From assembly GCA_964016885.1 (NCBI GenBank), contig OZ024752.1:24490001-24554000 (forward strand): 64,000 nucleotides of DNA, given 5' to 3'. The DNA is from Eledone cirrhosa. Taxonomy: Eukaryota. The notes under the pieces are model-generated. The model ran no database searches, was not told where the DNA came from, and saw only the letters and a list, made by a program, of their open reading frames with translations. The position numbers and the translations under genes are program-made. Shown here one piece after another: positions 42,001 to 44,112 of the stretch (position 1 is the first letter of the stretch; each line of letters opens with the position of its first letter).

Positions 42001-43173
42001 CGTAACTGTCTTTACCCCATTGCAGAAACTAATTAGTTGGAGTGAAAATTTAAGTAAGTTAATTCTTTAAAATTTTTTTTTTTAATTTTCTTGTTTTACG
42101 TCTTTTATATTATTGTTCTGCATCCTCCTGCATTGAACCACCTAGGTACTATGACATAACCTGTGTATTTTCTGGCATTAGCGTACATCTGTTCGCTTAT
42201 GTTAGTAGATATATTAAATTATATATATTTATCTCCAAATCACTGATTTGTCGAGCAAACCTGCCAAATCCACTACTAAATTTTTTAGGGGGTGTTAGTA
42301 GGCGTCTGTCATCTTACCATCCCATTCCTACTGACTAACCACAGTGTCACGTGATTGATTCTTTAGAATTGGCCATTTGACCAGTGGCAGTGAGAATTTT
42401 CAGTGCCTGGAATCCAGTCCTCGATAGCTGTTCCATTTACCGAATTATTATTATTTTTATATGAGTCCCCAGTGTCCGCGCATTTCCTGGAGACTTGGCT
42501 GAGAATAGACCTCCCTGATGACGCACTGAAATTCTCAACAGTTCATTACGTAACTGTCTTTATCCCATTGCAGAAACTAATTAGTTGGAGTGAAAATTTA
42601 AGTAAGTAAGTTAATTCTTTAAAATTTTTTTTTTAAATTTTCTTACTTTACGTCTTTTATATTATTGTTCTGCATCCTCCTGCATTGAACCACCTAGGTA
42701 CTATGACATAACCTGTGTATTTTCTGGCATTAGTGTACATCTGTGCGCTTATGTTAGTAGATATATTAAATTATCTATATTTATCTCCAAATCACTGATT
42801 TGTCGAGCAAACCTGCCAAAACCACTACTAAATTTTTTGGGGGTGTTAGTATGCGTCTGTCATCTTACCATCCCATTCCTACATTCCTACTGACTAGCCT
42901 CAGTGTCACGTGATTGATTCTTTAGAATCGGCCATTTGACCAGTGGCAGTGAGAATGTTCAATGCCTGGAATCCAGTCCTCGATAGCTGTTCCATTTACC
43001 GAATTATTATTATTTTTATATGAGTCCCCAGTGTCCGTGCATTGCCTGGAGACTTGGCTGAGAATAGACCTCTGATGACGCAATGAAATTCTCAACAGTT
43101 CATTACGTAACTGTCTTTATCCCATTGCAGAAACTAATTAGTTGGAGTGAAAATTTAAGTAAGTAAGTTAATT

Positions 43174-43178
<5 letters not shown>
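1..43178 (+). repeat. Tandem array of a ~549 bp HHR-containing unit (78 full + 1 partial copy in window; continues left); retrozyme-like satellite
   Basis: Unit start GTGAGAATTTTCAGTG recurs at 1, 551, 1099 ... 42949 with ~547-562 bp spacing (mirrored by the recurring 71-aa ORFs). Copies differ by scattered SNPs and T/G homopolymer length. The last copy stops at ATTCTTTA (43178) and runs into (TA)n. Confidence 0.99.
1220..1299 (+). ncRNA. Type I hammerhead ribozyme, representative intact copy (one motif per satellite unit; first at 121-200, last at ~43069-43147)
   Basis: Stem I CTCC (1220-23)/GGAG (1296-99); core CTGATGA (1224-30); stem II GCAATG (1232-37)/CATTGC (1275-80) enclosing hairpin ACAGTT/AACTGT; GAAA (1282-85); palindromic stem III A-CTAATTAG-T; predicted cleavage after GUU at 1295. 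Weak points: stem I is only 4 bp and positions 10.1/11.1 are a C.A mismatch. Confidence 0.8.
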
Positions 43179-43234
<56 letters not shown>

Positions 43235-43261
43235 TTATATTTTTATATATATATATATATA

Positions 43262-43306
<45 letters not shown>

Positions 43307-43358
43307 TTATATATATATATATATATATATATGGTTTATATATATATGTATATATATG

Positions 43359-43423
<65 letters not shown>

Positions 43424-43484
43424 ATATATATATATATCTGATATATATATATAGCTGATATATATATATATATACATATATATA

Positions 43485-43523
<39 letters not shown>
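43178..43523. repeat. (TA)n microsatellite, interrupted
   Basis: Long TA dinucleotide runs directly after the satellite end. Confidence 0.97.
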
Positions 43524-43524
<1 letters not shown>

Positions 43525-43564
43525 GATATTAAATAAATGTAAACTATATTTATAAAACCATATT

Positions 43565-43630
43565 TATTTCATTATATATATTTCAGGGATATCATATTAA
43601 AAATATTGTATGCCTTCATCAGACAAAATA
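43565..43630 (-). ncRNA. Type I hammerhead ribozyme (PLE pLTR-type, palindromic stem III)
   Basis: Minus strand reads TATTTTGT-CTGATGA-AGG(25 nt)CCT-GAAA-TATATA-TA-ATGAAATA: 8 bp stem I with two G.U pairs, stem II AGG/CCT, self-complementary stem III, AUA cleavage triplet (between 43573 and 43572). Confidence 0.78.
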
Positions 43631-43701
43631 CAATATAAACAGTCTTATAAATATCTATTTATAAGACTGTTTATATTGTATTTTGTCTGATGAAGGCATA
43701 C
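43608..43701. repeat. Perfect inverted repeat, 46 bp arms with 2 nt spacer
   Basis: 43608-43653 is the reverse complement of 43656-43701; the right arm has CTGATGA on + but lacks the GAAA half. Confidence 0.95.
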
Positions 43702-43715
43702 CATATTTGTTTGGG

Positions 43716-44112
43716 AACAGACCTGTAATTTTGAATTGTTGTTATTATCAATAAATATATTTCATTATTTCTGAAGACGGCATATGTATGTGTTGGTATG
43801 TATATTATATTTGATAGTTTGTATAATTTTGTATAATTTTGTACATAGATCTGTTGTATATGCATGCCAATTCTAACACATATATGTCCTAGAAACGATC
43901 GTTAAATAATGAACTTTTTTTGTTTAATATAAGGAACTGTTTCATTGTTTTATTCATTATTTTTTTTATACTTTATCTTGACTCTGTATTCCGTTTATCT
44001 TTCACCGAAAGTGATTTTGAATGCATCTCTTCTTTCCATGATATCCGGATTACATTGAGTTCTTCATACGGATTGGACACTACCGTAAACTCTTGGTAGA
44101 TTTATCTACATA
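43716..44112 (+). repeat. 5' pseudo-LTR (direct repeat copy 1)
   Basis: Matches 48868-49264 at a constant offset of 5152, with about 6 differences counted by eye. Confidence 0.93.
43761..43913 (+). ncRNA. Type I hammerhead ribozyme in 5' pLTR with very long stem II
   Basis: Stem I TTCATTATTT/AAATAATGAA (10 bp perfect); CTGAAGA (43771-77); 114 nt stem II region (TATGTGTTGG pairing with CTAACACATA); GAAA (43892-95); palindromic stem III A-CGATCG-T; GUU cleavage after 43903. Confidence 0.85.

Follow-up and report, generated by a model that had tools for sequence, protein, structure and literature searches.

The 64,000-nt stretch of Eledone cirrhosa DNA analysed here (the window) holds a long tandem array whose units each carry a hammerhead ribozyme motif, and which ends directly in a (TA)n tract close to a PLE, here PLE1, with a hammerhead of its own. 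The locus raises the question of how such an array came to end there and whether its PLE neighbour was its parent or its helper, as a first-pass annotation made from the letters alone had proposed. The coordinates of the features on which the answer draws are collected in Table 1.

Table 1. Features of the window, in order of position (N17, cleavage-site nucleotide)
Feature	Positions	Strand	Remarks
Satellite array, ~549-bp units	1-43178	+	79 hammerhead motifs, 78 full units; left end outside the 64-kb window
Hammerhead of terminal unit	43068-43147	+	Core 43072-43078, GAAA 43130-43133, N17 43143
Tail, cleavage site to array end	43144-43178	+	35 nt; last TA common to tail and tract
(TA)n tract	43179-43523		Satellite 3' end enters from left, E3 3' end from right
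E3, inverted 3' end of another hammerhead family	43524-43708	-	Core 43622-43616, N17 43573
PLE1 5' pLTR	43716-44112	+	397 bp, 98.5% identical to 3' pLTR
PLE1 hammerhead	43761-43913	+	10-bp stem I, 114-nt stem II domain, GUU, N17 43903
PLE1 RT and C-terminal GIY-YIG frame	44262-46436	+	Hydra-clade motifs
PLE1 3' pLTR	48868-49264	+	Second hammerhead copy 48913-49065; ends in (TA)n
Interrupted (TA)n tract, 12 kb	49265-61404		Holds further element ends
E4, 373-bp palindrome	50182-50554		Two outward-facing hammerhead-bearing 3' ends; cores 50303 (minus) and 50433 (plus)
PLE2, 3' part of a second Hydra-clade PLE	61979-64000	-	Frame change near 63660; beyond assembly gap

A 12-nt anchor recurs 79 times at a spacing of 547-562 bp along the ~43-kb array, and the 78 full units match their own consensus at a mean identity of 97.9%. 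The unit is 549 bp long with 37% GC, contains neither an LTR nor an ORF (the longest stop-free frame is 91 aa), and shows no Pol III A-box pattern and one B-box-like match, on the minus strand. Every unit carries one type I hammerhead motif, the core being present in consecutive units. Read from its 5' side, the motif has a 4-bp stem I and the core, then a 51-nt stem II domain that opens with a 6-bp helix and is flanked by an unpaired C before it and an unpaired A after it, and lastly GAAA, stem III (a 10-nt palindrome) and GUU. The 51-nt domain and the C/A junction at its base depart from the canonical stem II of about 4 bp with G10.1-C11.1, and stem I, at 4 bp, has no evident extension for loop 1/loop 2 contacts; on this predicted layout the satellite hammerhead is a variant ribozyme. 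The circular MFE of the unit is -128.9 kcal/mol, against -107.1 +/- 5.4 kcal/mol for 60 shuffles (z=-4.1), and the ribozyme fold is predicted to be a minor state in the dimer context of the unit (P~0.07 for stem I, ~0.2 for stem II). The strict descriptor used for these motifs found five matches in 42601-64000 and, when 8061 non-simple bases were shuffled 150 times, none in any of the shuffled sequences; it allows a bulge near the base of stem II, which an earlier version did not, thereby missing the PLE1 ribozyme. An Rfam scan of the window at E<=1 returned 69 matches, all to microRNA models on hairpins or simple repeats, and no hammerhead, while an exact search of a collection of genome contigs with a 27-nt satellite motif gave 0 matches.

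The satellite shares much with the metazoan non-LTR retrozymes of coral, mussel and axolotl as they are described in PMC7229834, where the non-coding repeats are likewise arranged head to tail, each unit has a single type I hammerhead and folds strongly, and the GC content is below 50%. It differs from that description in the size of the array (at least 79 units, against up to 62-mers in coral), in its unit length of 549 bp, above the stated 150-450 bp, and in having a 51-nt stem II domain with a C/A junction in place of ~4 bp, although the mussel and axolotl retrozymes also deviate from the canonical ribozyme. By its testable features the satellite would belong with the metazoan non-LTR retrozymes, as a member with a variant ribozyme.

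The ribozymes of the array are in mixed condition. While 49 of the 79 pass the strict descriptor and 33 are fully intact, several of them consecutive, 46 are damaged, by a change in the core or at U16.1 (24), by a weakened stem II (21) or, in the last one, by a shortened stem I. We rejected the idea that the ribozyme is under selection within the array because its positions are as variable as the rest (9 of 33 core and stem sites polymorphic, against 118 of 515 elsewhere in the unit; p=0.53). Seventeen pairs of units are identical, and higher-order repeats of four to five units occur along the array; together with the dead ribozymes, these imply that the bulk of the array grew by DNA-level exchange and not by repeated RNA-level selection. 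In the terminal unit, a deletion of 2 nt found in no other unit leaves the ribozyme with a stem I of 2 bp. Private changes are more numerous here than in any other unit, at 9 events spread over 17 columns, against 12 in the runner-up; a genuine and old array edge should look like this.

The position at which the array ends is informative about its origin. The first-pass annotation had the last unit ending at 43178, 35 nt past GTT and straight in (TA)n, and we confirm this: GTT lies at 43141-43143, and 43178 is the last base that matches the unit, the final TA being common to unit and tract. In most units the tail would be 31 nt long; the last unit has a 4-nt duplication, found in 13 of the 78 full units. 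The same annotation rightly placed the 3' ends of both PLEs, at 49264 and 61979, in (TA)n, but these lie 209 and 114-115 nt past their own cleavage sites, not about 35. The first 70 nt past the satellite cleavage site are 80-89% AT, and no part of the unit is richer in AT than the tail; 2 of the 48 TA sites in the unit fall within 28-50 nt of the cleavage site, as do 2 of the 13 that are strongly AT-rich.

Hydra-clade PLEs offer the comparison for this distance. In File S2 of PMC8557442, the consensus 3' ends of 10 of 24 Hydra families lie 30, 36, 36, 40, 40, 41, 44, 46, 47 and 48 nt past the site, and those of the remaining 14 at 63-153 nt, with one at 355. These offsets were computed from the published positions and lengths, three of them checked by eye on the consensus sequences, and the 24 families are the 26 rows of that file minus an antisense duplicate of Penelope-13_HM and minus Penelope-18_HMa, a 5' copy with the same motif as Penelope-1_HM. 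Among nine ribozyme copies at related loci, a TA run stands at 31, 31, 38, 39, 50 and 53 nt in six and at 103-118 nt in three, with the caveat that the two 31-nt copies sit in one complex inverted structure at locus L002 and may be non-independent. Within the window the offsets are +35 for the satellite, about +50 for E3, about +79 for E4, +114-115 for PLE2 and +209 for PLE1. The satellite value (+31 in most units) falls in the main cluster of Hydra-clade 3' ends. It is ~8-9 times likelier under the Hydra-clade end distribution than under a uniform break, a ratio that falls to ~1.5-3 if breaks need AT-rich TA sites (15-29% of such candidates lie in 28-50 nt) and that comes from one end of one array (n=1), with the 30-50 band read from the same published table. 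As moderate support from a single end, the offset speaks for Hydra-clade machinery as a whole; for the PLE1 family in particular it is, if it says anything, evidence against.

Both PLEs of the window encode an RT followed by GIY-YIG with a CxCx5C linker between them, the linker being present also in 24 of the 44 homologous proteins found at 30-50% identity. CxxC is absent inside the GIY-YIG core of both, and the motifs flanking E and N are CRLC and CNH in PLE1 and CDLC and CKQ in PLE2, the last of which deviates from CxH. Pfam gave nothing above cut-off on either frame. RWK occurs in 13 and DKT in 25 of the 44 homologues, and both are in the consensus of 17 aligned sequences; in the PLE1 copy the RWK region is deleted and DKT reads DKP, while the corresponding region of PLE2 lies outside the window. 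Similar to the Hydra clade as set out in PMC8557442, the two elements combine a C-terminal GIY-YIG, CxCx5C and CxxC/CxH around E and N with the lack of CCHH, and they share with it a sense hammerhead near the 3' end, the (TA)n target and an inverted fragment at the 5' side. With these marks of the clade, PLE1 and PLE2 would be Hydra-clade elements; the Naiad clade, which needs an N-terminal endonuclease, was rejected for both.

The PLE1 frame lacks ~90 codons near its N-terminus, with a frame change at ~44310, and has a second frame change at ~46157 inside the endonuclease. Because of this deletion and the two frame changes, we rejected the copy at this locus as a working helper; judged by its frame it could not itself fill that role, but the PLE1 family could. 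Its 3' pLTR matches the 5' pLTR up to the start of (TA)n, the second hammerhead copy carries one substitution at the base of stem II, and the fold of 43745-43925, around the first, has z=-4.0. PLE1 spans 5.5 kb, against less than 3 kb given for the Hydra clade in PMC8557442, because of repeats in its 3' UTR, and it exceeds all Hydra values published there in the length of its stem II (114 nt) and all but one in its offset. The 3' UTR (46382-48860) is enlarged by TA/TG microsatellites and by degenerate 110-140-bp repeats whose series starts inside the last part of the reading frame.

PLE2 is separated from the rest of the TA tract by an assembly gap of 200 N at 61455-61654, directly before which a GC-rich, hairpin-like fragment (61404-61454) forms the contig edge, and its 3' end meets (TA)n at 61979-61980. 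Its hammerhead-like motif on the minus strand (core 62136-62130, N17 62094) has U.U at the base of stem II and all three stems, with A replacing the conserved U4; the looser pattern matched 2 of 150 shuffles. The motif is probably a dead copy and possibly a variant.

According to Craig et al. 2021 (PMC8557442), nearly all Hydra-clade families insert in (TA)n and carry hammerheads, and the tract of this window holds further ends of this kind. Directly opposite the satellite, on the other side of the TA tract, lies an inverted E3 and not PLE1. The E3 ribozyme has an AUA triplet, a perfect stem III palindrome and, at the base of stem II, A-U; E3 ends ~49-51 nt past its site in (TA)n. It belongs to a palindrome of 108 bp (43601-43708) that is joined to the PLE1 pLTR. 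In 43524-43716 the PLE1 insertion opens with the E3 fold-back, which is truncated within stem II and connected by a flipped micro-hairpin; the E3/PLE1 junction is a template switch between two PLE-type RNAs. The ribozymes of E4 have a CUA triplet, and its right arm ends ~78-80 nt past its site in (TA)n; the two arms are 99.7% identical, and to their left lie 130 bp of other, unrelated sequence (region 50050-50554). The satellite is one of five ribozyme families that end in one TA region, the others being PLE1, PLE2, E3 and E4, and with several families in the same tract, adjacency reflects a common target. Three ribozyme families are clustered at L002 as well, two of which each have a ~50-nt and a ~116-nt 3' end. 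The Hydra-clade PLEs at L002 (4400-5600) and L005 (1875-2500), which lie in bacterial genome bins, contain inverted chains of three ribozyme families; their PLE content makes it likely that this sequence is host or animal DNA.

The tract has further peculiarities of its own. Its interruptions are strand-polarised over 49265-61979, three tokens outnumbering their complements by 212 to 3, 118 to 1 and 83 to 2 in 50560-61404, and the polarity stays the same to the left and right of PLE1 and beyond the gap. A 97-bp element occurs in it twice (58305-58522 and 56359-56455) at 99% identity, the second copy being preceded by five head-to-tail 24-bp repeats made of its first 19 nt and a few TA bases. 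These repeats could have arisen by telomerase-like re-priming by a PLE RT at its TA target or by plain DNA slippage.

A closer bond between the two neighbours would exist if the unit derived from, or depended on, the PLE1 family or a close sister, its C/A junction and oversized stem II being either inherited or a recognition signal of the helper. Both hammerheads are type I. In each, CUGANGA is followed by C, GAAA is preceded by A, stem III forms a perfect palindrome and the triplet is GUU, features that the first-pass annotation had listed, with an enlarged stem II, as a shared, odd architecture. Part of it is ordinary. In the Hydra families tabulated in PMC8557442, GUU occurs in 10 of 24 and AC...GU closing stem III in 24 of 24; according to PMC4209133 and PMC3088659, metazoan and PLE ribozymes usually have small loops that are palindromic, a long helix II and an additional base following A9. 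A strict stem III palindrome was counted by eye in 1 of the 24 rows, which would favour kinship, but E3 has a perfect one too. The base of stem II in these families is a mismatch in 14 (13 U.U and one U.C), G-C in six and G.U in four, with C/A in none of the 24, and their stem II domains measure 12-26 nt; the ribozyme families of L002, L004, L005 and L006 likewise have neither a C/A junction nor an oversized stem II. Precedents for both features exist in the plant-lineage PLE-X1 elements of the same source, PLE-X1_cBra having C/A and PLE-X1_sMoe a long stem II. The 'long helix II' of PMC13725137 was rejected as a precedent for 51-114 nt, as it means 6 bp there. Of the shared features, two are clade-wide (GUU and AC...GU), one is common in animals (the palindrome) and two are rare (C/A and the oversized stem II). 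Even the rare ones are not alike throughout: the stem II domain is 51 nt in the satellite and 114 nt in PLE1, stem I is 4 and 10 bp, and the predicted preferred fold of PLE1 has a C/UA junction (P=0.85) instead of C/A. As that annotation had also noted, the two ribozymes have no obvious sequence identity (local alignment, p=0.71). The search it had proposed, for a PLE pLTR that aligns to the unit, found no match among PLE1, PLE2 and loci L001-L006: against PLE1 and PLE2 DNA the best blastn hit was a 14-nt AT match (E=0.086) and the best nhmmer hit had E=4.3, nothing significant emerged from the islands of the tract or from the loci, and tblastn with the 44 homologous proteins as queries (best E=0.04) gave no PLE coding remnant. 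The covariance models it had called for did not cross-match either. That of the satellite found no PLE1 match at E<=10 and gave ordinary ribozymes of the Hydra clade in other animals scores of up to 19 bits, and that of PLE1 matched no satellite ribozyme in 39500-43178, although with near-identical rows and length differences penalised both are a weak test that leaves room for remote kinship. Two further models do not enter this comparison: R2, unbranched and without a hammerhead, was left unused, and matches of R3 at 50296-50440 and in L002 were rejected as ribozyme kinship, since R3 mostly detects long palindromes. The rare C/A junction and long stem II keep kinship alive at low probability; set against the missing similarity and the offsets of +35 and +209, derivation from or dependence on the PLE1 family seems quite unlikely to us. 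A helper-parasite system visible at one locus, as first suggested, is not supported by these results, given that the PLE1 copy is broken and that four other ribozyme families share the tract.

The end of the array might instead have nothing to do with reverse transcription, a break or recombination at TA in an AT-rich stretch, or expansion from a (TA)n seed, having placed it near the cleavage site by chance. The high AT content past the site and the 2 of 13 strongly AT-rich TA sites inside the band suit such an event, and the array clearly evolves by DNA-level exchange; 46 of the 48 TA sites of the unit, however, lie outside 28-50 nt, the polarity and offset match PLE 3' ends, and the four other ribozyme families end likewise in the tract. 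We regard a DNA-level origin of the end as unlikely. Long (TA)n tracts are hard to sequence, and the same tract contains the 200-N gap, so that the junction could also be an assembly artefact in which a collapsed satellite was joined to the TA tract. There is no gap at the junction, and the terminal unit has 9 private mutation events, which makes an artefact very improbable.

With some caution, we hold the following origin to be probable: a Hydra-clade PLE protein retrotransposed the founder of what is now a non-LTR retrozyme satellite, and DNA-level amplification later enlarged it into the array; that a Hydra family seeded the array is a fairly probable part of this. Under this explanation, the unit would have been transcribed together with its type I hammerhead, the palindromic stem III of which probably allowed activity as a dimer. 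Going by the behaviour of the clade, a Hydra-clade GIY-YIG would have nicked (TA)n, and the RT would have used the nick for priming ~31-35 nt past the cleavage site, in the range in which many Hydra PLEs have their ends. An uncleaved multimeric or circular RNA would have served as template, because the start lies just past the cleavage site, and priming would have fixed the right-hand end at 43178. Leftward growth through unequal exchange of multi-unit blocks, to which the array sequence attests, would then have let dead ribozymes spread freely while the edge unit escaped homogenisation. Since several unrelated hammerhead-bearing families evidently also ended in this TA tract, PLE1 would be a co-resident of a common landing pad, and the true helper or parent family may lie outside the window. 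The earlier proposal of a passenger seeded into TA microsatellite by PLE enzymes is retained here as a non-autonomous repeat that PLE machinery would have put into (TA)n, as the offset cluster and the target of the clade suggest; its alternative, a pLTR derivative, gains no support from PLE1 or PLE2, to whose DNA the unit has no significant similarity.

Biochemical work on another PLE gives this mechanism a model. Frangieh et al. 2024 (PMC11167929) reported in vitro that the Poseidon PLE of Anolis nicks AT-rich DNA and that its RT begins within the RNA, at a point past the hammerhead, which determines where the genomic copies end on the 3' side; the 'tail' results from two such start sites, and cleavage was dispensable in vitro. 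Poseidon starts ~85-92 nt past the site (by subtraction) in an AC-rich stem-loop and is of a different clade from PLE1 and PLE2, but the ~50- and ~116-nt ends of the two L002 families resemble its two starts. By analogy, we infer that the internal RT start downstream of the ribozyme carries over from Poseidon to the Hydra clade. Non-autonomous head-to-tail partners of PLEs have been described in the Chlamys elements (PMC8557442), and PLEs were suggested as mobilisers of retrozymes by Cervera & de la Pena 2020 (PMC7229834). Li, Clavereau and Pollet (bioRxiv 10.64898/2026.07.22.740005) treat retrozymes, with units of 51-972 bp in up to 300 copies, as non-autonomous PLE derivatives that pass from PLE terminal sequence to retrozyme to local amplification, on the basis of co-occurrence and pLTR similarity in Xenopus, where 24 of 57 families match Repbase entries. 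Their general model is the same as ours, with a sequence match there and an end signature without sequence match here; the parts of that preprint covered here contain no analysis of array ends or of the (TA)n target, and among open-licence papers and preprints we found none that compares retrozyme array ends with PLE 3' offsets.

PLE-driven retrozymes have already been proposed in print, and the end signature is a useful new test of them. In the parts of the literature drawn on here, the mobiliser has so far been argued from co-occurrence and pLTR similarity, the enzyme being proposed and the mechanism not demonstrated, and the distance from cleavage site to (TA)n, common to Hydra PLEs and this retrozyme, provides a cheap genome-wide test that does without sequence homology. 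The locus also shows that (TA)n tracts collect many PLE families, so that adjacency is no proof of partnership, and that curated Rfam models miss long-stem-II hammerheads like these. A more specific possibility, which we advance tentatively and consider improbable as it stands, is that of an invertebrate retrozyme without PLE sequence likeness, moved in trans by a Hydra-clade PLE protein that recognises a ribozyme-anchored structure and whose RT start is fixed 31-35 nt past the site at (TA)n; the lineage-specific hammerhead variant, with its C/A junction and oversized stem II, may then mark the lineage of the helper. If mobilisation in trans by Hydra-clade PLEs is true, the ends of such arrays would be a direct genomic footprint of who moves retrozymes.
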